A DNA stretch of 64,000 nucleotides from an uncultured Acidimicrobiaceae bacterium. Lineage in GTDB: Bacteria > Actinomycetota > Acidimicrobiia > Acidimicrobiales > RAAP-2. The notes below the pieces were generated by a model. That model was given only the letters and a program-made list of their open reading frames with translations, did not search any database and was not told the DNA's origin. A program made the translations under genes and the position numbers. Positions 14,098 to 63,742 of the stretch are shown piece after piece (the stretch's first letter is position 1; every line of letters starts with the position of its first letter). The stretch spans positions 62,822-126,821 of the forward strand of contig CAVUVM010000001.1 in the NCBI GenBank assembly GCA_963744935.1, given 5' to 3'.

Positions 14098-14227
14098 CGT
14101 TTTGTCCGACCACTGCGGGCGGCGACGCTCCGGGGGGAAGCGTTTTCGCTGCTGAGAGCATTGCTGGCGCAGAGCCCGGAGCGGGCCGGCGCTGGGCCGC
14201 CGCGGGGCCGGCGCGGGCCGATCCGGG

Positions 14228-17431: not shown

Positions 17432-17610
17432 TGCACAACCTCCCTCGCATGATGCGATACCCGGGGTTCTGCCCGGGAAAACCCCCGTGATCACGGCGGC
17501 AGATGGGATTGCACCCAATCGGGCGCCCCGGATCAGAGGGTCGTGCTGAGGTACCGCAGCCGGGAACCGCGCCGAGCCGACGACCAGGAGCCGGGGAACT
17601 CCTCCTCTTC

Positions 17611-17727
17611 TGTATATGCAGCCCTCCGAAACCCACCCCAATTAACGAAGGATCGACCCCCCATTTAACGAAGGATAAGCGAATATCCTTCCGTAAACCC
17701 CCCCAATTAACGAAGGTTACATATACA
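17611..17727 (+). repeat. AT-rich repeat element, copy A (three direct TTAACGAAGG decamers plus one inverted)
   Basis: Decamers at 17642, 17665 and 17707; inverted CCTTCCGTAA at 17687. About 80% identical to the reverse complement of 35216-35320. Ends are TGTATATGCAGCC / GGTTACATATACA. Confidence 0.8.
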
Positions 17728-17806
17728 AGCCGCAAACCACAACCGGCCATCGGCTCAGCTCACCGAGCCCGACCTCGCCGCCCCACGCAGGCGCCAGGTC
17801 CCTCGA

Positions 17807-18626: not shown

Positions 18627-19031
18627 CTAGCTCGCAGCCAGGATCTTCGACTTCTGGGCCTCGAACTCCGCATCGGTCAGCACACCCTGGCTCTTGAGGT
18701 CGGCCAACTTGGAGAGTTGGGAGGCGCTGTCGGCGCCGGGGGTGCCGGCGGCCTGACGCACGTACTGGTCGAAGGCCTTCTGCTGCTGTGCCGCATCCGA
18801 CGCTGCCCGCTCGTGCATCTTGGAGCCCCGGGCGATGAGGTACACGAAGACACCGAGGTAGGGGACGATGATGACGAAGATCACCCACAGCGCCTTAGCC
18901 AAGCCTCCGATGTCATGGCTGCGGAAGATGTCCATGAACACCATGATCAACAGCCAGATCCAGATGATGAAGAGGAAGAAGTACAGCATCGTCAGGAAGG
19001 CATCGAGGACCGGGTAACTCGAGGCAAGCAT
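18627..19031 (-). CDS. PLDc_N (phospholipase-D-nuclease N-terminal) membrane domain + SHOCT domain protein
   Basis: Two TM helices with the WVIFVIIVPYLGVFVYLI motif. C-terminal SHOCT: LADLKSQGVLTDAEFEAQKSKIL. Confidence 0.85.
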   Translation of the reverse strand: MLASSYPVLDAFLTMLYFFLFIIWIWLLIMVFMDIFRSHDIGGLAKALWVIFVIIVPYLGVFVYLIARGSKMHERAASDAAQQQKAFDQYVRQAAGTPGADSASQLSKLADLKSQGVLTDAEFEAQKSKILAAS

Positions 19032-19142
19032 GCAGGCTCCTTAGGTCGCGTTGTGGTGACTCCTCAACGGCGGTTTGCTCATTCTGCCCCGAAACGATGA
19101 CGCGTGTCGCCGATTGGCCAGGACAATTCTTCGAGCCGTGGC

Positions 19143-30628: not shown

Positions 30629-31030
30629 CTAGCTGGCCAAGACCTTGGCTTTTTCGGCCTCGAACTCGGCGTCGGTCAGCACGCCCTGATTCTTGAGGTC
30701 GGCCAGTTTGGAGAGCTGGGAGGCGGTGTCGGCACCCGGCGTTCCCGCCGCCTGCCGGACGTACTCGTCGAAGGCCTTCTGTTGCAGCTGCGCCTGGTGG
30801 ATGCGCCGCTCGTGCATCGACCCGCCGCGTGCGATCAGGTACACGAGCACCCCGAGGAAGGGGAAGATGACGATGAAGATCACCCATAGCGCCTTGGCCC
30901 AGCCTCCCATGTCGTGGCTGCCGAAGATGTCGAAGAACACCATGATCGCAAGCCAGATCCAGATGAAGAACAAGAAGAAGTACAGGATCGTCAAAAAGGC
31001 GTCGAGCACCGGGTAGCTAGTTCCAAGCAT
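30629..31030 (-). CDS. PLDc_N + SHOCT domain protein (paralog of 18627-19031)
   Basis: Collinear with the 18.6-kb copy along its full length; by eye about 80% nt identity. Confidence 0.85.
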   Translation of the reverse strand: MLGTSYPVLDAFLTILYFFLFFIWIWLAIMVFFDIFGSHDMGGWAKALWVIFIVIFPFLGVLVYLIARGGSMHERRIHQAQLQQKAFDEYVRQAAGTPGADTASQLSKLADLKNQGVLTDAEFEAEKAKVLAS

Positions 31031-31244
31031 GAATCTGGCTCCTTGTCGTCATGGTCGGCGAGAACCCCCGACACGCAATTTCTACCCCGATTACCTGGTC
31101 GGATGCTGGAATAGCCCTACCCGGCAACCCAGGGGCGCACCTGAACCCGCGGATCACGAGCTCGGCCGGAACACACGACGTCGCCTCGATTCCCTCGAGC
31201 CGCCGGCCCGACGCCGGTGGGCTCGCTCAGTGCGGTGTGCTGGT

Positions 31245-35148: not shown

Positions 35149-35215
35149 GACATTCACGACGCACCGCACGGCCGGACACCGCGCACCGAGCACCACCCTG
35201 ACGGGCCCTTTCGCA

Positions 35216-35320
35216 TGTATATGCAGCCTTCGTTAATTGGGTGGGGTTACGGAAGGATATCTGCGTATCCTTCGTTAACTCGACGTCGATCCTTCGTGAA
35301 TCGAGGTGGGTTCGGAGGGC
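35216..35320 (-). repeat. AT-rich repeat element, copy B (inverted relative to copy A)
   Basis: The reverse complement aligns with 17621-17727 at about 80% identity, including all four decamer sites and the central hairpin. Confidence 0.8.
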
Positions 35321-35363
35321 CTTGGCAGACAGGCGATGCGGCAGCGCGGCTGTCTTGCCGAGA

Positions 35364-51609: not shown

Positions 51610-53562
51610 TCACACGCCGCCGAACTCGTAGTGCGCCCGGTCGATGTGGCGGGTCCACCCCCAGTACTGGTCGAGCGGCCACGGCGAGAGCGTGAAGACC
51701 TTGCCGTCGCGGTTCTTGTAGTGGCTGTGCTCGATGGCGGGATGCGCCCACACCAGCTGGCTGATCTCGGCCTGGTAGCGCTCGGCGTAGTCGTCGTGCG
51801 CGTCGGCCCGCACCTCGGCCCACAGCGCGTCGAACGCCAGCGTCTCGTGAATGGCGTCGAGGGCATAGTGCACCTGGAATTCGGCGTGGTAGAAGAGGCT
51901 GGCGCCGAAGGCCAAGTTGGTCCCCGGGCCGTAGATGCAGAAGAGGTTGGGGAAGTTCGGCATCGTGATGCCGAGGTACGCCGTCGGCTCGTCCCCCCAC
52001 TGGTCGCGCAACGAGATGCCGTGCCTCCCTCGCACGTCCATGGACGCCAGGAACTCGTTGTGCCGGAAGCCGGTGGCGTAGCAGATGACGTCGGCGGGGT
52101 AGTGCGTTCCGTCGGTCGTGACGATCCCGTCGGGGACCACCCGCTCGATGCTCGTGCGCACCAGCTCGACGTTGGGCTTCTGCAGCGTGCGCAGCCAGGT
52201 GCCGTCGTCTTGGAGGATGCGCTTGCCCGTGGCGGGGTAGTCGGGGACGACCTTCTCGAGCAGCTCGGGGTCGTCGCCGACGAGTGATTTCATGGAGGCC
52301 ACCAGCGCCGCCGCCCGTTTGGCGTTGACGGCGTTGATCGACTGGTGGGTCGGATCGTCGTGCTCGGGGTCGATGCGGTACATCTCCACGCCGGCCGCGA
52401 TGCCGGCGTACGTCATGACGAAGCGGTACCAGCGCCCGTAGAAGGGCAGGTGCTTCAGCGCCCAGGCGTCGCCGGGCGGCACGGGCGTGTGGTACAGCCG
52501 GTTGGGGAGGATCCACTGCGCGGTGCGCTGGAAGATCGTGAGCTGTTCGACCTCGTCGGCAATGGCGGGGCCGATCTGGAACCCGCTGGCGCCGGCGCCG
52601 ACGAGCGCGAACCTTGTCCCGCGGATGTCGAGGTCCTCGGGCCAGCGTGCCGAGTGGAACGACGGCCCGGCGAAACTTTCCATGCCCGGGAACTCAGGCA
52701 GCCGGGGCAGGTTGAGCGAGCCGACGGCGCTGATGACGAAGCGGGCCTCGAGCACCTCGTCGGCGCCACTGGCGTCGCGCACGGTGACGCGCCACATGGC
52801 CCGGTCCTCCTGCCACACCACTTCGGTGACCGCTGTCTCGAAACGGCAGTGCGGCCGGAGGTCGAACTTGTCGACGATCGCACCGAAGTAGGCGCGCAGC
52901 TCGGGCTGCTGGCAGTAGTACTCGCTCCACAGCTCGGCCGGCTCGAAGGAGAAGCAGTACTGGTGGCTCCCGACGTCGACGCGTGCGCCGGGGTAGTGGT
53001 TCTCCCACCAGGTCCCGCCCGGACCCGCGTTCTTGTCGATGATCGTGAAAGGCAGCCCGGCCTGCTTGAGGCGGATGCCGGCCAAGATCCCACCCATCCC
53101 GCAACCGATCACGACGACCGGTGATTCGGTCTTCTGGGATTCCGAGATCTCGTCACCCCACGAGATCTCCCCGTTGTCACCGCCCTCGAACTGCAGGTCG
53201 TCGAAGAAGAGCCCGGCCAGCTCGCCTTCGACCTGACGACGGCCCAGGAAGCCCATCATCTCGAGCAACAGGTCGCGGGACAGCTCGACCGGGACGCAGC
53301 CGCTGTCGTGGTAGGCGGCGATCACCGGGAGGGCACGGCGGCGGACTTCCGCCATGTCCTCTTCGGACATTCCACCCTGGATGTCCAACGACATGCCCAC
53401 GTTCGGCTGGATCTCGCCCCGCACCCACGAGGGGTCGCCGGTCATGTGCACGAGCGAGGCCATGAGCGCCGGGATGCTGACGTCTTGGAGCGCGCGGGCG
53501 ATGGCCTCGTCGCCGTCCTCGAACGGCTCTCCGGCGAAACGGTTCCTCGTCACGACCGACAT
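51610..53562 (-). CDS. Flavin-dependent (Baeyer-Villiger type) monooxygenase
   Basis: ATG at 53562. FAD motif GCGMGG, fingerprint GGTWWENHYPGARVD, and the second Rossmann motif GAGASG. Confidence 0.85.
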   Translation of the reverse strand: MSVVTRNRFAGEPFEDGDEAIARALQDVSIPALMASLVHMTGDPSWVRGEIQPNVGMSLDIQGGMSEEDMAEVRRRALPVIAAYHDSGCVPVELSRDLLLEMMGFLGRRQVEGELAGLFFDDLQFEGGDNGEISWGDEISESQKTESPVVVIGCGMGGILAGIRLKQAGLPFTIIDKNAGPGGTWWENHYPGARVDVGSHQYCFSFEPAELWSEYYCQQPELRAYFGAIVDKFDLRPHCRFETAVTEVVWQEDRAMWRVTVRDASGADEVLEARFVISAVGSLNLPRLPEFPGMESFAGPSFHSARWPEDLDIRGTRFALVGAGASGFQIGPAIADEVEQLTIFQRTAQWILPNRLYHTPVPPGDAWALKHLPFYGRWYRFVMTYAGIAAGVEMYRIDPEHDDPTHQSINAVNAKRAAALVASMKSLVGDDPELLEKVVPDYPATGKRILQDDGTWLRTLQKPNVELVRTSIERVVPDGIVTTDGTHYPADVICYATGFRHNEFLASMDVRGRHGISLRDQWGDEPTAYLGITMPNFPNLFCIYGPGTNLAFGASLFYHAEFQVHYALDAIHETLAFDALWAEVRADAHDDYAERYQAEISQLVWAHPAIEHSHYKNRDGKVFTLSPWPLDQYWGWTRHIDRAHYEFGGV

Positions 53563-53736
53563 CCTCGTCGTCGGCGCCCCCACCAGGCAATCGAGGTGGT
53601 GGGTGCGCCGAACGGGCGGCATCCGCCCGGGGCCGCCTCGCCGCGCGCGTGGCTGCGTCACCAGTGCCGTAGGTCCCTGGTTGTTGAGGGCCAACGTCCC
53701 TAGAGCTCGTGGCCGGGCCGGCCGGATACTGGCTAC

Positions 53737-54624
53737 GTGTTGTTGAGTCGTCCAAAGACGCTGGTGGACGAGGCCGATTCGAATGAGGCGCGCCCGCGCC
53801 GAGGTCCCCCGGCACCGCCCAGGGCTCCGCATCGTCACCGCCGCTGGCCGTGGGTGCTCGGGGCCTTCGGAGCGGTCCTGGCGGCGTTCGCCATCTACGT
53901 CGTCGTGACCTGGGACCCAGCGCGTCCCGTCTCGATGGGCCAGGCGGAGCAGCGGCTCGGGATCGAAGGGCAGGGAGTGGCGGGGGGGCGACCGGCACGC
54001 GGCGTCTATCTCTATACGGGCACGGGGACCGACAAGTTGTCCCTGCCACCGCTGTCGCAGGCCGAGGGCCCCACCATGCCGGGCACCGTCACCCTCCAGG
54101 CTCATGGCTGCTGGACCTTCCGCGTGGATTACAGCTCACACCACTGGGAGACCTGGAACTTCTGCCGGCAGGGAAACGACACGACGGAACGCGGTGGGCT
54201 GATCTGGCAGCTCTGGGCGATCGGCCCGTTGCACGAGACGAACCTCACGACTCTGACGTGCACAGCGGACACCATGTGGCTCCCAGCCAGCGCGACACCT
54301 GGCCAGAACTGGCACAGCGCCTGCCGGGGTACCAGTTCCGCGCTCAAAGGTGTCGTGCACAGCATCGGCCCGTACCGCTTCGTGCGCACGACAACCCTCG
54401 ACGTAGCCGGACACCCGGTACGCGCAGCCGAGTTCCGCCAACTCCGCACCGAGTCGGGAGCCCAACGGGGGACCGAGCACGACGTGATGTGGATCGACGC
54501 TTCCAATGGCCTGCCGCTACGGATCGACCAGGACATCGCGGTCGTCAGCGCCACACCGTTCGGCTCGTCGACCTACACGCAGAGGGGCACGTTCACGCTG
54601 CGGTCACTGGTCGTCCACAGCTGA
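53737..54624 (+). CDS. Hypothetical membrane-anchored protein
   Basis: GTG start, one TM helix (WVLGAFGAVLAAFAIYVVV), and a Cys/Trp-containing ectodomain. Confidence 0.5.
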   Translation: MLLSRPKTLVDEADSNEARPRRGPPAPPRAPHRHRRWPWVLGAFGAVLAAFAIYVVVTWDPARPVSMGQAEQRLGIEGQGVAGGRPARGVYLYTGTGTDKLSLPPLSQAEGPTMPGTVTLQAHGCWTFRVDYSSHHWETWNFCRQGNDTTERGGLIWQLWAIGPLHETNLTTLTCTADTMWLPASATPGQNWHSACRGTSSALKGVVHSIGPYRFVRTTTLDVAGHPVRAAEFRQLRTESGAQRGTEHDVMWIDASNGLPLRIDQDIAVVSATPFGSSTYTQRGTFTLRSLVVHS

Positions 54625-54904
54625 CGCACGTCGGCCTGGGAGGGCGAAGGCGTTCCGAATGGCAAGACTTGAGGCCATAGCCGGTATACGGGACGTTCCA
54701 TCATCGACCTTCTGAGTGCGCAGTCAGACGCTCGAGCCCGTTGAGCTACGAACGCCGGAGTGAGGCGGTCCATCCCACTGGCGCGCATGAAGTACCGGCA
54801 CCACGAGCTTCCAGACCGGTGTAGGCTTGCACTAAACAGTTGCCCTAGACCTCGGTGACCCAAGCAAGAGTCGGGTGTTACTCGCTCGGCCAAGAAAGGG
54901 AGCC

Positions 54905-57489: not shown

Positions 57490-58320
57490 GTGATGGATGA
57501 CCAGCTCCCGTCCCGAGTGAGTGCTCGTGCCCAAGAGCCCAGTCCACGGCAGCACATTGCATCTCCAACCCTGAGAACGTGGAATTCCTTCGATCGATTC
57601 AGGGAAAATGCCCCACCCTGTGTCGGGAACGAACCAGAAGGCGATACGTTTGAGCGCGTGTGCTTCTCTCCCGAAGGCGATCTTGTCGGGGGACTGGTGG
57701 TCACCGCTATCGGTATCGACGCGTACCGACACCTCCGCGGGCAGGACAACCACCTGTTGTTCGCGACCGTGCCGCTCGTACTCGGAATTCATCAACTCGA
57801 TGAATCGCTCGTTTGGTGGGGGCTCGAGGGACCTGTTCCGCACTCGCTCGGACGGTTCGCAATGTGGATCTACTTGGTGATTGCCATGGTGGTCGTCCCC
57901 ATCCTCGTGCCTCTCTCGATCTGGAAGCTTCAACCAACATCACCACGACGATGGGTCATCGCTCCCTTTCTCGGCCTCGGCATCATCGTGGCGACCATCC
58001 TGCTGATTACTATGTTGCGAGGGCCGGTCACCGTCAGCCTGGGCGCGCACCATCTCGCCTATAGCATCGGGCTCCGCCATGGGATACTGATTATCGGCCT
58101 CTACGTGCTTGCGACGTGTGGATCGCTCCTCTGCTCGGGCTATCGGGACATTACGATCTTCGGCGTTGCCAATCTGATCGCAGTGGTCGTCTTGGCTCGA
58201 CTCACCGCTGATGGATTTGCGTCGCTCTGGTGTGCCTACGCGGCACTTGCAGCCGGGTTCATCTCACTTCACATGCGCCTCGGGAGAGCGCACCGAGCGA
58301 AGCCCTACGCTCTGACCTAA
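57490..58320 (+). CDS. Polytopic membrane protein (DUF6629-like)
   Basis: About 6 TM helices. The true start is likely internal, for example GTG 57658. Confidence 0.55.
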   Translation: MMDDQLPSRVSARAQEPSPRQHIASPTLRTWNSFDRFRENAPPCVGNEPEGDTFERVCFSPEGDLVGGLVVTAIGIDAYRHLRGQDNHLLFATVPLVLGIHQLDESLVWWGLEGPVPHSLGRFAMWIYLVIAMVVVPILVPLSIWKLQPTSPRRWVIAPFLGLGIIVATILLITMLRGPVTVSLGAHHLAYSIGLRHGILIIGLYVLATCGSLLCSGYRDITIFGVANLIAVVVLARLTADGFASLWCAYAALAAGFISLHMRLGRAHRAKPYALT

Positions 58321-58464
58321 GCCTGGTGAGCGACGGAAGCAACCCCCGATCTTCTGATCCGTAGTGGCTCCTGAGCCGTCCAGACCGTTGTACTCAGTGG
58401 CGTTCTGCCAGTTCAGAGTGGGTACCGGATCCAGACAGTCTGACCTGGTCGGCGCAGTTTCTCT

Positions 58465-58557
58465 CAAAAGATTGCCAAAGAGATTGCCAGACGGTGATCA
58501 GAAGGTTGTCTCATTGCGCGATTTCGACTCGACCCATGTGCGCGAATCGCAAACCCA
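58465..58557. repeat. Islet-flanking direct repeat, left copy (DR-A)
   Basis: Aligns with 63176-63270 at about 80% identity. Contains the GATTGCCA-N4-GATTGCCA doublet and the AbiEii stop codon. Confidence 0.8.
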
Positions 58558-59415
58558 TACTCCGACTGCGGTGTCGCGAAATAAAGGGTCGAGAAAGGTG
58601 CGGACCACGCCGAGCGCTTCGTCCAAAGTGCGCGCTGTGTCGAGGAGGGAACGGCGCGCCTCGGCCGCATACCCCCGCTCCCAGAGGATCCGATCGGGCA
58701 CGTCGAAATGATCGGGGAGTGTTAGTTCCCGTCGCTCGAACTCTGAGCGCAGAGCGGCTGACTGTGCCTCCGCTGAAACTGAGGCTGCGGTCACGATCGC
58801 CACCAGATCCACCAGGTCCCGGTAGCGCGTCGATGGTTGCTGGCCCTCACCGTGGCGTTCGTAGGTTGCGGCGATCTTGTCGGCAATGTGATCAACGAGT
58901 GGGTACGCTCGATAGCCGCGCTGCTCGACGTCGGGGATGACCCCTCGAGCCAACGGTGGGACGTCATCAGGCTGACCGGTCATCCGGAGATCGGAACCGA
59001 CGATGTCAACGCGAAATTCCACCCACGTCGTGGCACCGATGACAGCATTCACCGGAAGACGGACGGCACTGGCGGCGACCGGCGTGCCGCCCCCCACTTC
59101 GAATCGAAACCAGTCGCCAACATCGATTGCTGCCGCCTGGCGCAGCTCCTCCTCCGCCACCCCCCTCGCGACATCGCGGTAGAGGTCGATGTCGAGACTT
59201 CCGCGCACACCGATATCCCGGGCGAGCAGAGCGGTGGCACCTTTCACGATCCATCCATCGTCGATGAAATAGAGCCGCTCGATGAGTCGGTCGTAGGCAA
59301 CCTGCCGTTGGAGCTGCTGCAATGACCATCGACCGTCTCTGGCCGCTGTCTTGAGCCGGTCCGTCAGAGCACGCCGAAAGGCGGCCGGGGTCGCGTAGCG
59401 ATCCCCCGCACTCAT
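58498..59415 (-). CDS. Nucleotidyltransferase AbiEii/AbiGii-family toxin (type IV TA)
   Basis: N-terminal FRRALTDRLK...WIVKGATALLAR...GSLDIDL pattern. ATGA overlap with the upstream AbiEi gene. Confidence 0.85.
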   Translation of the reverse strand: MSAGDRYATPAAFRRALTDRLKTAARDGRWSLQQLQRQVAYDRLIERLYFIDDGWIVKGATALLARDIGVRGSLDIDLYRDVARGVAEEELRQAAAIDVGDWFRFEVGGGTPVAASAVRLPVNAVIGATTWVEFRVDIVGSDLRMTGQPDDVPPLARGVIPDVEQRGYRAYPLVDHIADKIAATYERHGEGQQPSTRYRDLVDLVAIVTAASVSAEAQSAALRSEFERRELTLPDHFDVPDRILWERGYAAEARRSLLDTARTLDEALGVVRTFLDPLFRDTAVGVWVCDSRTWVESKSRNETTF

Positions 59416-60119
59416 GTCGCCACCCCTGCAGTGCGAGCGACGTGGGCGCGTGCCTCGTCCATCCACCGATCTCTCTCGGGATTACCGGTCATGTCAAGGA
59501 ACCATCGGAATAGCCCGAGACCGTCGCCCTTGCGGAGGCCGAACCGGGCGGCATGTGCTGCGAGGCTGTCGGCGAAGCTCCCCGGGTAGTCGTAGACGGA
59601 CGAAATCGCATCGGCGATCAGCTGAGCCACCGCCTCCGGGTCCTCGTTGTCCCACAGGAGGTCCGATGCGATGCGCGAAGGCCTGGTGACCGGGAGACCA
59701 CGCTGGCCGATCCATTCCCGATCCTCGAGGGGCCGCACGTGGATGCGTACGTCCGGTCGTCGGGTCTGCTTTCGCTTCGGCACGGTGAACTCGTGCCGGT
59801 CGGCCGGCAGGTGTCCCAGTCCGTAAAGAGATGCCGCCGACCGGTGCGAGACGACCCCCTCGTCCGCGGTCCGCGCCCACGCGGGGACTCGTGGATCAAG
59901 CTGGAGCCAGGCCGCGCGTAGATCGAGGTGGTCGGGGATCGGTGCACCCACCAGCCGGTAGACCCCGGTCGCGACCCGTTCGAGACCCCCTCCCGGTGAC
60001 GTGAGGCGCTCGAGCGTCGTCGAGCCGATTCCCTCATCCTCGATCTGCCGGCGGGTGAGGAGACCCCACTGTTCCTGGGCAAATTCCTGGAGCCGCGGTA
60101 GGGCTGACGGTCTGGGCAC
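59412..60119 (-). CDS. AbiEi-family antitoxin/transcriptional regulator (type IV TA)
   Basis: GTG start. N-terminal winged helix: WGLLTRRQIEDEGIGSTTLERLTSPGGGLERVATGVYRL. Confidence 0.85.
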   Translation of the reverse strand: MPRPSALPRLQEFAQEQWGLLTRRQIEDEGIGSTTLERLTSPGGGLERVATGVYRLVGAPIPDHLDLRAAWLQLDPRVPAWARTADEGVVSHRSAASLYGLGHLPADRHEFTVPKRKQTRRPDVRIHVRPLEDREWIGQRGLPVTRPSRIASDLLWDNEDPEAVAQLIADAISSVYDYPGSFADSLAAHAARFGLRKGDGLGLFRWFLDMTGNPERDRWMDEARAHVARTAGVAT

Positions 60120-60128
60120 TGCTTCATT

Positions 60129-60210
60129 ATACCCCTTATAGGGGGGTAATTGCAGTATTAGGAGGGCGATAGTGCTTCGGAATACCCCTTATAAGGGGGT
60201 TAATGCAGTA
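60129..60210. promoter_or_regulatory. Putative AbiEi operator: two 29-bp direct repeats, each containing a palindrome
   Basis: ATACCCCTTATAGGGGGGTAATTGCAGTA at 60129 and ATACCCCTTATAAGGGGGTTAATGCAGTA at 60182. The repeat starts are 53 bp apart, and the first begins 10 bp upstream of the abiEi start. Confidence 0.6.
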
Positions 60211-60225
60211 GGCGCTGGCTGTCCG

Positions 60226-62613
60226 TCATACCAGCCCACTTGAAGGCATTCGAGCGCGCTTGTCTACCGGGAACCCCAGAGAGCTGTATGCAGGGAGGCG
60301 CTTGGCGTGCATGCGAGCGAGAACGGGGACATTGATATCGACGTAGTCGTGCACCTCGACCCGCGATTTTGATGCCGTAGGCCGAAGCACGCGCCCGACG
60401 TACTGGACGATTCGACCTTTGAATGCCAAGGGAAACGCAAGAAAGAGCGTGTCGAGTTGGGGGAAGTCGAATCCCTCTCCCAGAAAGCTCCCTGTTGCCA
60501 GCAGAACCAATCCACCCGCAGACGCCTTCGCCTGCATGTCTGCCGAGGCCGCCGCGCGAGCCTTCTTGCCCATCCCACCGCGCATCACGACAGATTCGAT
60601 CCCGAGAGCCTGCACTTCGCGGCGGAGTCTTTCGAGGTGCTCAGTCCGTTGCGTCAACACCATGCAGTTTCGGCCGTACCCGACAGCCGCTGCGATATCG
60701 CCACAGATCTGACGAGACCGCTCGTCATCCTCGACAATGGCGCTGAAGATCTCCTGGATCCCCACGTCGTCTGCAGGGGCCTGTTCGTGCTCGGTGACGT
60801 GCGTCACCAGGACCCGCTCGACCCTGAGATCCTCAGCCTCGTCACTGGTCATTCGATGACGCTCCGGGCCGCAGTACATCGTGATGAGCTTCTCGAGGTG
60901 GTCTCGGCGATAAGGCGTCGCGGTTAATCCCAGCCAATGGCGCACCGCAATCTGCCGTACGACACGTTCGAAGGTGACTGCCGGAACGTGATGGCATTCA
61001 TCGACGATCACCAATCCGTACCCGGAGGTGCTTTCCGCGAGATCCTCCCGACGGGCGAGGCTCTGCGCCATCGCGATATCGATGACCCCCTTGGCCCGAT
61101 TTCGTCCACCGCCGAACTGGCCGACCTCGTTAGCCCCCACGCCGAGGTGATCTCCGAGCCGCTCCCGCCATTGATCAACAAGTGGCTGTCGGTCCACCAC
61201 CACGAGCGTCGGGAGCCGGCGATGGGAGATGAGTGCACAGGCGATCACCGTCTTGCCTGAGCCCGGAGGAGCCACAAGGACGCCGAGATCGTGGGGGATA
61301 AGCGCCTCCAGTGCTCGACCCTGGTGATCGGTGAGGTGTGCCTGCAAGGACACGTCGATCGGCTCGGGTGTTCCACACGCGTCCGTGACGGCGAGGCTGC
61401 TTCCGGCGTCTGCGACCATGCTCTTTGCCTGGTCCTGGATCCCGCGAGGGAGATGGAGGCGATCGATGGTCTCGCCGTAACAGCGCAAGAAGCGAGGCGT
61501 GTTCCAGGTGGAGAACCGGAGCCGCTCCTTTTCGTAGTAGTCGGGGTTGTGGAGCGAGGCCAGATGCTTGAGCGCAGCCAGGAGAGCTGGCGGCACGCCG
61601 ATGCGATCGATCTCGAGCATGGCGCCGGCGAAAGCGGGGATGACGTCGGGAGGTTTCTGATCGGCACTATCCCCCCGCGGGCGCCGATACCGAGCGTCGT
61701 CGGGGCCGGCGGCGACGGGTGCGAGCGTCCTCTCAAGTTGAAGCACAGCCTCAGGGGACATTCGAGGCACAGACGCCAAGAACGCCCATTGGTCCTCGTG
61801 CGGTTCGAGGGTTGCTGGATCGAGGAAGACGGTGGTGCCTTGCCGCCGGCACTCACCTTGGAGTGGAAGCGCGATCAGGTTCCCAAAGGACCCTTTCGGG
61901 ACAAAGTCCTGTGTGGGGAACAGTCGGTCGTAGCTCGACAGATCCAGTTCCGCTCTGAACTCCATCGCCTCGCGGAGGATGTGCACGCCGAGACGGCGAG
62001 CAGAGGAGGCTGACACCGGCCCAGAAAAGAAGATCCAGGTGTGCGCCCCGTCACCCGACCGCGATCGCTCGAGGGCCACCGGTACCCCGATCGTTGCGGC
62101 GGCATCGAGGTAGGCCAGCGCATCGAGCACCCAGCCTTCTCCATCAAAATCACAGGCCAGCAGTCGGCACTCGTCGCCACGGCGTAGTGGATAGAGGCCG
62201 AGGTGGCTCTCGCCACCGAGATGTGATTCGACCACTTCTTCGCTGAGCGGCACGTACTGGCGTCCGGGCCTCTTGGCGTTTGCCCAGCCGCCGATTACAG
62301 CGGGACTCCAGCCCGTCTTGCCGGTGCGAGCGCTTTCCCAGCGGAGCGCGTGCACATCGTCGCGTCCCAGAAATAAGGAACGGAAGAGCGCGATTTTGAG
62401 CTCAGCCGGCGAGTTCTTGTCCACACTCGGATGGACATCCTTATGTTCGGACTCGACGAAGAGTGTTGGTTCCCACGGCCGCACGGTCTCCAGCCGGCTC
62501 GGTTGATCGAGGCCCAGCAGCGCACGGAGACGATCGTTCTCCGCCCGGATCGCTTCGATCTCGGCTTCGAGTGCACGGATCTTGGGATCGTCGGAGTCGG
62601 TCACTTCGGACAT
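60226..62613 (-). CDS. Archaeo-eukaryotic primase (PrimPol)-like domain fused to an SF2 DExH helicase
   Basis: ATG at 62613, then an N-terminal coiled coil. AEP motifs: LLACDFDGEGW (DxD), GDGAHTWIFF (sxH), SYDRLFP. Helicase motifs: APPGSGKT, VDECHH, TATP, QYVGRVLR. Confidence 0.85.
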   Translation of the reverse strand: MSEVTDSDDPKIRALEAEIEAIRAENDRLRALLGLDQPSRLETVRPWEPTLFVESEHKDVHPSVDKNSPAELKIALFRSLFLGRDDVHALRWESARTGKTGWSPAVIGGWANAKRPGRQYVPLSEEVVESHLGGESHLGLYPLRRGDECRLLACDFDGEGWVLDALAYLDAAATIGVPVALERSRSGDGAHTWIFFSGPVSASSARRLGVHILREAMEFRAELDLSSYDRLFPTQDFVPKGSFGNLIALPLQGECRRQGTTVFLDPATLEPHEDQWAFLASVPRMSPEAVLQLERTLAPVAAGPDDARYRRPRGDSADQKPPDVIPAFAGAMLEIDRIGVPPALLAALKHLASLHNPDYYEKERLRFSTWNTPRFLRCYGETIDRLHLPRGIQDQAKSMVADAGSSLAVTDACGTPEPIDVSLQAHLTDHQGRALEALIPHDLGVLVAPPGSGKTVIACALISHRRLPTLVVVDRQPLVDQWRERLGDHLGVGANEVGQFGGGRNRAKGVIDIAMAQSLARREDLAESTSGYGLVIVDECHHVPAVTFERVVRQIAVRHWLGLTATPYRRDHLEKLITMYCGPERHRMTSDEAEDLRVERVLVTHVTEHEQAPADDVGIQEIFSAIVEDDERSRQICGDIAAAVGYGRNCMVLTQRTEHLERLRREVQALGIESVVMRGGMGKKARAAASADMQAKASAGGLVLLATGSFLGEGFDFPQLDTLFLAFPLAFKGRIVQYVGRVLRPTASKSRVEVHDYVDINVPVLARMHAKRLPAYSSLGFPVDKRARMPSSGLV

Positions 62614-62651
62614 GAAGCGTCTAGCGGGCTTGAACCGCTGACCTCTGACGA

Positions 62652-63113
62652 CTACGAAGCACGTAGAAACTCCGCGTATCGCTGCTCGAGGCGAATGGGT
62701 TCGGGTCTGGCTGCAGGATTGTGGGGTACGGCGATGAGCGACCCATGCATCTCCTGGAGGCCGTGTTTGAGCATGGGACCATCCTCTTCGTCGAGCAGCT
62801 CTTGATTGATTCTGACCTCGTGCCCGGGGGTGATTCCGAGAAAGTTGCGATCGAACGCAGCATGGTGGATTTTGCACAGTGCCATCCCGTTGGTCACCAC
62901 AGGATCGCCGTCGCCCTCGCCATCACCGATTATGTGAGCAGCGTCGAGCAACTCGGCATGTCGCAGCCGGCACACGGCGCAGTTTGAAGAATACGCATGG
63001 AGCTCGCGTTCGCGAAACATCGGCTGATGGAGTCGTTGTCTGGTCATTCTTGCGGCATAGACCTTTTCGGGACCGGTGAGCGTGGAGAGATCCACCGTCT
63101 GACCGAGTTGCAT
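62652..63113 (-). CDS. HNH endonuclease (HNH_2-like)
   Basis: CAVCRL...LLDAAHIIG...TNGMALCKIHHAAFD beta-beta-alpha-Me motif. Ends 38 nt upstream of the helicase gene on the same strand. Confidence 0.8.
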   Translation of the reverse strand: MQLGQTVDLSTLTGPEKVYAARMTRQRLHQPMFRERELHAYSSNCAVCRLRHAELLDAAHIIGDGEGDGDPVVTNGMALCKIHHAAFDRNFLGITPGHEVRINQELLDEEDGPMLKHGLQEMHGSLIAVPHNPAARPEPIRLEQRYAEFLRAS

Positions 63114-63175
63114 ATCCCCAGCTCAAATAGGGCTCAGTGTCCACTGGGTAAAGCGTTGTCACCTCGAGTATGCCC

Positions 63176-63270
63176 CAAAAGATTGCCAAAAGGATTGCCA
63201 GAAACGACGATCAGAAGGTTGCCTCATTGGACGGTTTCTTGTCGACCAGTGCGCGCAAATCGCGGTCCCA
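63176..63270. repeat. Islet-flanking direct repeat, right copy (DR-B), with a decayed AbiEii-like 3' end
   Basis: Aligns with DR-A. The minus-strand frame ends ...DRDLRALVDKKPSNEATF*, compared with the AbiEii C-terminus ...DSRTWVESKSRNETTF*. Confidence 0.8.
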
Positions 63271-63274
63271 GCCC

Positions 63275-63742
63275 CTAAGTGAAGATGATCTCCCCGCCGG
63301 CGGCCTTTTTGTAGAACTCGCCCACGGTGATGATGTCCTCGACCTGATCGATGAAATCGTCCTTGGTAAAACCGAACAGGTCCACCGAGGCCTTGCACGC
63401 GTAGAGCCCACAGCCAGTATCGGCGATCATCTCCACGAACTCGGGCACGCCGGGGATGTCGTGCTGCTCCATCTTCCTCTCCATCATGTGGGTCGCGATG
63501 GCCGACATACCGGGCAAAACACCGATCAGGCTTGCCATGTGCATTCCCGGATTGCCAACCGCGGCCACCTTCAGGTGTTCGAGCCGCTTTTTGTTGATGG
63601 CGTCGAGGCCGAAGAACGTAAAGAAGAGATTGGCTTCGATCCCCTCGGCGCGCGCTCCGTTGGCCATGATCAAGCCGGGATAGACGCCTTCCAGCGACCC
63701 CTTAGACATGATGATCGACACCTTTTCGATGGCTTCGCCCAT
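63275..63742 (-). CDS. DsrE/DsrF/DsrH-like sulfur-relay family protein
   Basis: 155 aa. Contains FFTFFGLD and CGLYACKASVDLFG motifs. Confidence 0.75.
   Translation of the reverse strand: MGEAIEKVSIIMSKGSLEGVYPGLIMANGARAEGIEANLFFTFFGLDAINKKRLEHLKVAAVGNPGMHMASLIGVLPGMSAIATHMMERKMEQHDIPGVPEFVEMIADTGCGLYACKASVDLFGFTKDDFIDQVEDIITVGEFYKKAAGGEIIFT

Follow-up and report, generated by a model that had tools for sequence, protein, structure and literature searches.

How four defence-type genes came to lie between two imperfect direct repeats of some 90 nucleotides (nt), with no recombinase among them, is the question raised by an islet at positions 58465-63270 of a 64,000-nt stretch of contig CAVUVM010000001.1, from an uncultured Acidimicrobiaceae bacterium (the whole stretch is called the window below). 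A first-pass annotation of the window had taken the repeats as the borders of the islet and considered its mode of acquisition not obvious. Based on comparison with related contigs, we consider it very probable that the islet is the immobilised relic of two sister integrative elements that stood in tandem at a site derived from tRNA-Arg(ACG), between a DsrE-like core gene (dsrE) and the gene for a DUF6629 membrane protein. The two 93-nt repeats would then be homologous arm segments of the two elements.

The repeat pair itself stands as first described: aligned end to end, 58465-58557 and 63176-63270 are identical at 75 of 93 positions (80.6%) with one 2-nt indel, and their local alignment score of 54 compares with a maximum of 17 among 2000 random 95-nt pieces of the window. 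Both halves were found at exactly two places in the 64 kb, against none expected in shuffles; two copies rather than many scattered ones speak against a dispersed repeat of the repetitive extragenic palindrome or miniature inverted-repeat transposable element kind. Among 80 dsrE loci the repeat was matched only in the syntenic contig L001, a scan of Joint Genome Institute (JGI) metagenomes for the pair of TGGCAATC motifs that the repeat contains gave no match, and a scan of IMG/VR gave nine unrelated matches, limited to a 20-mer and located on low-GC contigs. The suggestion that the repeat might be an intergenic motif scattered genome-wide therefore fails. Nor is it purely intergenic, as the left copy overlaps the last 20 codons of abiEii. 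No Rfam family was found in the region or in the whole window, and a promoter and terminator scan gave nothing over background. The longest runs identical between the two copies are 13-14 nt, which we estimate to be about chance level for 80% identity over 93 nt, and which alone are no sign of a crossover core. The islet had also been described as richer in AT than the genes named as its flanks, which it is not: its GC content of 62.8% exceeds that of dsrE (57.9%) and of the DUF6629 gene (59.4%), and is lower only than the window mean of 67.2%.

The evidence that carries our reading comes from a second Acidimicrobiaceae contig, L081, which was reached through a search for homologues of the islet's helicase and then a look-up of the closest relative. 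Positions 63094..58351 of the window match L081 9384..14121 at 97.7% identity over 4745 nt. The L081 copy sits elsewhere, at a TetR-ROK-p450 / tRNA-Arg site, and a near-identical copy in a different context is evidence of mobility; the earlier view of the four genes as acquired cargo is correct. Two features of L081 stand at the end that the window copy has lost:

L081 7325-7399: tRNA-Arg(ACG).
L081 7499-8692: tyrosine integrase (Phage_integrase).

In full, the order in L081 is tRNA-Arg(ACG), integrase, HNH_2 (302 amino acids), AEP-TOTE helicase, AbiEi, AbiEii, a non-coding arm of ~240 nt and a core repeat. The core, CTACGGATCAGAAG, is present at both ends of the element, with its second copy at 14108. 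Contigs L082 and L166 have the same layout of tRNA-Arg, integrase, AEP-TOTE helicase and HNH at the same TetR-ROK site, with HipA replacing AbiE. The integrase gene was found in L081, L082 and L166, and both cores in L081 and L082. Complete members of this family are ~6.7 kb long and consist of tRNA-Arg, core, short arm, integrase, defence cargo, distal arm of ~240 nt and core repeat, the cargo being HNH and the AEP-TOTE helicase together with an AbiE or a HipA toxin-antitoxin. AbiEii relatives in JGI metagenomes (at most 77% identity) have no such arm, which makes it a part of the element rather than of AbiE.

Because the islet matches the complete, integrase-bearing element of L081, it belongs to this family of small tRNA-Arg-targeting integrative elements. 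The window copy is without the tRNA, one core, the integrase and HNH residues 1-155, so that decay, as the first-pass annotation had suspected, was involved. A tblastn search with the L081 integrase found no match in the whole window, in agreement with the earlier remark that no integrase lies between the repeats. Of the marks of a tRNA-integrating element, an integrase and two cores, the window shows no integrase and a single core, while its 97.7% sibling has all of them; we therefore regard the islet as a relic rather than an active member.

At the distal end of the islet the following features were delimited:

58465..58557, minus strand: left repeat (A′ and B′ boxes), internal to the distal arm; single copy in the complete L081 element.
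58365..58464, minus strand: rest of the distal arm (tail); within the 97.7% L081 match (to 14121), also in L083.
58350..58364, minus strand: attR core CTACGGATCAGAAGA, from the tRNA-Arg anticodon loop and stem; from homology breakpoints, core scans and alignment.
58321..58349, minus strand: decayed tRNA-Arg 3′ half (TCGGGGGTTGCTTCC...); aligned to the intact 3′ halves of L081 and L082, common to L001 and L083.

The left repeat consists of the last 20 AbiEii codons and two 12-nt tandem TGGCAATC repeats. The match to L081 stops at window position 58351, and it is at 58364, and not at the left repeat, that L001 becomes homologous again; on the minus strand this end reads CTACGGATCAGAAG, then ATCGGGGGTTGC. 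Core scans found 58350-58364 to be the only core copy in the window, and there is no intact tRNA there. By these breakpoints the islet's true distal end is placed at 58351, 114 nt beyond the left repeat. In the complete element the repeat is single-copy (L081 13917-14006, inside the distal arm), and since the end also lies 114 nt further out, the left repeat marks no junction but lies within the element. Close relatives carrying the same genes with no repeat had been named as a finding that would count against the repeats as borders, and this is in part what was seen, the close copy of the genes in L081 having one repeat.

At the other end the features are:

63209..63270, minus strand: proximal part of the right repeat (‘A box’), relic of the last ~20 AbiEii codons of a sister element; ends in CAACCTTCTGATC.
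63176..63208, minus strand: distal part of the right repeat (‘B box’), arm relic of a sister element, with a tandem pair of TGGCAATC(C/T)(T/C)TT units that repeat every 12 nt, as also seen behind AbiEii in L081, L083 and L084.
63095..63175, minus strand: tail relic of the sister arm, ending ~20-25 nt short of the core; from the L084 match.
63091..63097, no strand assigned: deletion junction, where the arm relic (...GACGGT) meets mid-HNH (GGATCTCTCC...) at GGA-type microhomology; from a three-way comparison of the window, L081 9350-9420 and L084 11040-11110.

Read on the minus strand, the right copy begins 5 nt past the dsrE stop codon and translates as WDRDLRALVDKKPSNEATF*. Across ~120 AbiEii homologues the C-terminus has the form ...G(S/V)W(D/E)R(D/E)S(R/G)AW(V/I)ES, and the ancestral WDRD is kept in the right copy, where the left has WVCD. 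The two copies differ at 11 codons, each time non-synonymously, which shows the right copy to be free of coding constraint. Past the coding relic, window 63223..63094 matches L084 10956-11084, in the region after AbiEii, at 81.5% identity over 130 nt (E 3e-29). The AbiEii of L084, a sister element of the AbiE type, is 83% identical, and the L084 arm carries on to ...CACTACGGA. The right repeat and the next 80 nt thus appear to derive from a diverged sister element, as ~180 nt of its distal arm; this identification follows from the match to L084 and not from likeness between the left and right tails. The same AbiEii relic is found at the dsrE junction in L001, where its translation likewise gives the conserved AbiEii C-terminus. 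The earlier statement that sequence outside the repeats is unrelated is upheld for the left tail against the right tail (p ~0.06), and not for the 80 nt past the right repeat, which are homologous to the L084 sister-element arm. Two other candidates for the repeat were tried and rejected: coding for a conserved peptide was ruled out by the non-synonymous codon differences, and an inverted tRNA 3′ half in the A box by the AbiEii C-terminus, likeness to which explains all but the 13-mer CAACCTTCTGATC.

Taken literally, the decayed att site suggested in the first-pass annotation would make the two repeats attL and attR, left by one integration event, with loss of the integrase afterwards. The repeats are direct, ~93 nt long and flank acquired genes, and each holds GATCAGAAGGTTG, a 13-mer identical to part of tRNA-Arg, though inverted relative to the true core. 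We nevertheless judge it most improbable: the complete L081 element has one repeat and ends in CTACGGATCAGAAG cores, the right copy is a fragment of an AbiEii gene that continues for 80 nt as an arm of a different subtype (L084), and the element breaks off in mid-HNH instead of ending at the right repeat. In place of a unit bounded by the repeats as its att sites, we find one that runs 114 nt past the left repeat, is truncated 81 nt inside the right repeat and, when complete, has a single copy.

From homology relationships, breakpoints and the presence or absence of genes we infer the following order of events for the two tandem elements. An older AbiE-type element would have been nearly all deleted before the window and L001 split, leaving ~180 nt of its distal arm (AbiEii 3′ end, TGGCAATC pair and tail) by the dsrE stop. 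A younger L081-type element, 97-98% identical to copies in other genomes, would then have integrated at the core. Lastly, a ~2-kb deletion at GGA microhomology would have taken the core, the short arm and the integrase, along with the last stretch of the old arm on one side and the N-terminal half of HNH on the other. The tRNA-Arg attachment-site relic between dsrE and DUF6629 would on this account have been used repeatedly, and the 20% difference between the repeats would be due to the elements being of different subtypes, not to divergence after a target-site duplication. The L081 comparison thus offers a mechanism where none had been apparent, namely integration by a tyrosine integrase at a tRNA-Arg-derived site, then loss of the integrase end by deletion. 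Left with a single core and without an integrase, the islet cannot leave by site-specific recombination; mobilisation of the present islet in trans, raised in the first-pass annotation, is unlikely given the single surviving core, and the 80%-identical repeats could at most permit rare homologous deletion.

Relatives of the site itself are few. GTDB representatives provided one close relative (L001) and JGI metagenomes none; DsrE homologues occur in >500 genomes, and among 80 species representatives the sequence downstream of dsrE was syntenic only in L001. A DsrE homologue search with cluster listing gave nothing closer than L001 (L165 is a distant tandem-dsrE contig), and no record of a protein identical to the window DsrE was found. 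L001, whose flanks show 92-96% nt identity, parts from the window precisely behind CCTTCTGATC, where it has 3.2 kb of other cargo (Ig-domain proteins, peptidase A4), then an L082-type arm and the same core. L001 thus holds other cargo between the same A box and the same core, and the earlier idea of the site as a hotspot is borne out. The cargo block of L001 (5150-8316; Ig-domain proteins of I-set type, peptidase A4, no integrase), which ends in a TTGAGAACC pair, TAAGTCCAG and the core CTACAGATCAGAAG, is another integrase-less relic. In L083 the same element lies at the same site, beside DUF6629. Its tRNA 3′ end and short arm are still there, as is an N-terminal stretch of the integrase (residues 1-123 of the L081 protein), which is fused to the C-terminus of the AEP-helicase; absent are HNH, the remaining integrase and the greater part of the helicase. 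Since the deletions in L083 and the window differ, each copy descends from a full-length integrated one.

Compared between the window and L083, the islet is 97.0% identical and the flanks are 91.5% and 90.9% identical, and third codon positions differ by 3-6% in islet genes versus 8-18% in flank genes. This lower divergence points to arrival of the islet, or its correction by another copy, after the host lineages diverged. It also agrees with a cassette exchange at the hotspot, in which an already truncated islet would have been passed on by a relative, with homologous recombination taking place in the core genes on either side, and the different 3.2-kb cargo that L001 carries between the same A box and core marks the site as variable. 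We consider such an exchange unlikely, as the window and L083 each go back to a full-length integrated copy and the breakpoints fall at the tRNA-derived core, not within core genes. Cassette exchange would, moreover, account for the arrival of the islet and not for the origin of the repeats, and is compatible with tandem integration and deletion.

Several observations weigh against tandem integration and deletion. The junction between dsrE and the A box, which lies only 5 nt downstream of the dsrE stop in the window as well as in L001, demands a neatly placed old deletion; the direct likeness of the left and right tails, as given above, does not reach significance; and the lower divergence of the islet could in part reflect gene conversion between element copies rather than later arrival. 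No empty site, intact tRNA-Arg beside dsrE, or complete tandem array was found in any genome, so the tandem intermediate is our reconstruction. The 63094 junction, finally, is seen in this window only, part of a metagenome-assembled genome, and is what a chimeric join of two element copies during assembly could leave; the L083 contig breaks inside the element, a sign that these repeats trouble assemblers. To such an artefact we give next to no weight, as the microhomology at the junction is ~3 nt only, with no shared repeat for an assembler to jump on, and both outer junctions are independently backed by L001 and L083.

The arms of the elements contain short conserved motifs. Between subtypes the conserved blocks are the TGGCAATC pair, with its 12-nt period and at ~110-135 nt from the core, and ~30 nt beside the core, while sequence in mid-arm diverges. 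In arms of the L082 type the pair is TTGAGAACC, again with a period of 12 nt, and a CCCTAC pair stands on the integrase-side arm of L081, L082 and L084. These pairs look like putative arm-type or accessory-protein sites, and the TGGCAATC pair may have a binding role. The 13-mer CAACCTTCTGATC, which is the reverse complement of GATCAGAAGGTTG in tRNA-Arg, is found right behind the ancestral AbiEii stop in all arms of the AbiE type, and in none of the L082 type. Its positions are:

Window 58496-58508.
Window 63209-63221.
L081 13969-13981.
L084 10957-10970.

As separate observations, the integrase-side junction of L084 (1835-1885) contains head-to-head inverted tRNA-3′-like sequence, and a TGGCAATC-N4-TGGCAATC pair occurs directly after a gene stop, near contig ends, in three unrelated low-GC viral contigs of IMG/VR (L170, L173 and L176), possibly by coincidence or as arm-type sites of unrelated prophages.

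Could the repeat be a functional module, its arm being used by a sibling integrase or partner protein to swap or mobilise integrase-less cargo in trans? Conservation among the window copies, L081, L083 and L084 is highest in the CAACCTTCTGATC 13-mer and the TGGCAATC pair, L001 departs from the window exactly past CCTTCTGATC, and L082-type arms have the analogous TTGAGAACC pair. We regard this as very unlikely, since identical runs of 13-14 nt are estimated to arise by chance at 80% identity, no block bounded by two such modules was found at any other locus, the repeats of the P′ arm beside the integrase gene differ in sequence (CCCTAC), and the motif was not found in JGI metagenomes. A bolder form of the proposal, to which we assign a small chance, is that the inverted tRNA-core half-site CAACCTTCTGATC and the two 12-nt TGGCAATC repeats form a working secondary recombination site at which the sibling integrase swaps or captures cassettes. 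If true, tRNA-Arg elements would shuffle toxin-antitoxin and defence cassettes in an integron-like manner, leaving integrase-less islets behind.

The content of the islet agrees with its first description, Pfam and PADLOC assigning four minus-strand genes (HNH, AEP-helicase, abiEi and abiEii) between the repeats. With their flanks and the operator candidate they are:

63275..63742, minus strand: DsrE-like core gene, tRNA-proximal flank (Pfam DrsE_2, E 2e-35).
62652..63113, minus strand: HNH_2 gene, 5′-truncated (Pfam HNH_2).
60226..62877, minus strand: AEP-TOTE primase fused to an SF2 (ResIII/DEAD) helicase (Pfam AEP-TOTE, E 2e-77; ResIII, E 4.5e-23).
60120-60157 and 60173-60210: two direct repeats of 38 nt (84% identity), both containing a TACCCCTTATAGGGGGGTA palindrome and abutting the abiEi start on its upstream side (repeat search).
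59412..60119, minus strand: AbiEi antitoxin (Pfam AbiEi_4, PF13338; PADLOC AbiEi, E 3e-71).
58498..59403, minus strand: AbiEii toxin, open reading frame (ORF) extendable to 59466, last 20 codons in the left repeat (Pfam AbiEii, PF08843; PADLOC AbiEii, E 4e-83).
57490..58320, plus strand: DUF6629 membrane protein gene, distal flank (Pfam DUF6629, E 1e-28); syntenic in L001 and L083.

The HNH gene keeps residues 156-302 of the 302-residue sibling protein (97% identity by tblastn at 63095..62655), that is, the C-terminal 147 residues including the HNH motif; residues 1-155 are gone, and its start codon and first ~6 codons are supplied by the arm relic. The AEP-TOTE match of the helicase (PF22548, E 2.2e-77) spans profile positions 2-229 of 230, and the protein is 97% identical to P0001. 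Its ORF was listed with 883 amino acids, against ~790-800 in homologues, and is thus over-extended at the 5′ end. The true start is probably near 62620, so the overlap between the helicase and HNH ORFs is an artefact of ORF calling. The AbiEii ORF overshoots the usual C-terminus of the family by ~8 codons, into the arm of the element. AbiEi is known to autoregulate at operator repeats, and by analogy the 38-nt pair is a probable autoregulatory operator. Similar palindromes (ATACCCC..GGGGTAT) also occur downstream of dsrE in unrelated loci (L010, L056, L059, L076 and L165), ahead of small Cys-rich ORFs. Judged by their sequences, the AbiE module and the AEP-helicase are full-length, look intact and could still serve as defence cargo. 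The AEP-TOTE helicase always adjoins a toxin module, in the order HipA-AEP in L082 and L166, AEP-AbiEi-AbiEii in the window and L081, and AbiEi-AbiEii-AEP, with a 15-nt gap, in L167 and L168; this arrangement suggests that the primase-helicase and the toxin-antitoxin pair may be functionally linked.

Elsewhere in the window, a pseudo-tRNA-Arg at 54707-54772 (minus strand), called by neither ARAGORN nor Rfam, comprises the acceptor, D arm and anticodon arm with 17 nt of upstream flank, and is 83% identical to L081 7308-7372. It edges a variable segment, 53595-54800, of which 53595-54787 is missing in L083, and ~51960-54800 is missing in L001. The segment has the look of another relic hotspot for integration, at a distance of 3.6 kb from the first one. 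Further away, a direct repeat pair of 150-226 nt with 83% identity lies 12 kb apart (18637-19032 and 30636-31031), and an inverted pair of 57-66 nt lies 17.5 kb apart (17601-17730 and 35213-35341; 70-88% complementary, 88% for the 66-nt arm pair). These pairs suggest paralogous gene clusters or shared leader sequences.

For a repeat-flanked islet without a recombinase, the missing integrase, the tRNA-Arg(ACG) target and the true ends of the element have now been identified. The comparison also documents a family of ~6.7-kb tRNA-Arg-targeting elements in soil Acidimicrobiaceae, carrying the AEP-TOTE helicase and HNH with AbiE or HipA. For annotation, the lesson is that imperfect direct repeats around a defence islet may be look-alike arm relics between which tandem integration and deletion have fixed the defence genes.

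The paired motifs of the arm recall the attP sites of Lambda and L5, which have paired arm-type sites. Here too an arm of ~240 nt holds a direct 8-9-nt repeat pair, spaced by one helical turn and ~110-135 nt from the core, and a second pair (CCCTAC) lies on the integrase-side arm; unlike in attP of that type, the two arms carry different repeat sequences at these putative sites. Comparison with an integron-type array found no integrase-like ORF among the ORFs scanned near the site and no Rfam hit, no attC-specific search being part of it. At the level of domains, the cargo resembles the AbiE type IV toxin-antitoxin, an abortive infection system, in its adjacent genes for AbiEi, a wHTH antitoxin, and AbiEii, a nucleotidyltransferase toxin, and in the paired palindromic repeats upstream of abiEi, and differs in the ~8 codons by which the window AbiEii ORF exceeds the usual C-terminus. 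It resembles the TOTE conflict system, again at domain level, in the AEP-TOTE domain fused to an SF2 helicase beside an HNH_2 nuclease, with the difference that the HNH partner in the window is without its N-terminal half. The name TOTE follows Pfam (PF22548) and NCBI, and no paper describing the system was found in the library searched.

As a mobile unit, the islet is closest in kind to two known systems. Cis-mobilisable elements (CIMEs), found in accretions of the ICESt1/ICESt3 type in Streptococcus thermophilus, are integrase-less, keep both att sites and are mobilised by an incoming element. Like them, the islet is a remnant that lost its integrase by deletion and lies beside relics of a sister element; unlike them, it has one surviving core, and mobilisation in cis is for this reason not expected. 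The other system is that of tRNA-targeting tyrosine-integrase islands and small integrative elements, which may accrete in tandem at one tRNA site. As in these, the siblings of the islet sit in tRNA-Arg(ACG), their integrase lies by the restored tRNA and their opposite end carries a direct repeat derived from the tRNA, and the site between dsrE and DUF6629 accumulates and loses elements. The islet differs in that the window copy is without tRNA, integrase and one core, and occupies a secondary site with only a decayed tRNA 3′ half. The islet is in this sense the outcome of a known process, the accretion and deletion of a tRNA-integrating islet, and a case of ordinary decay.

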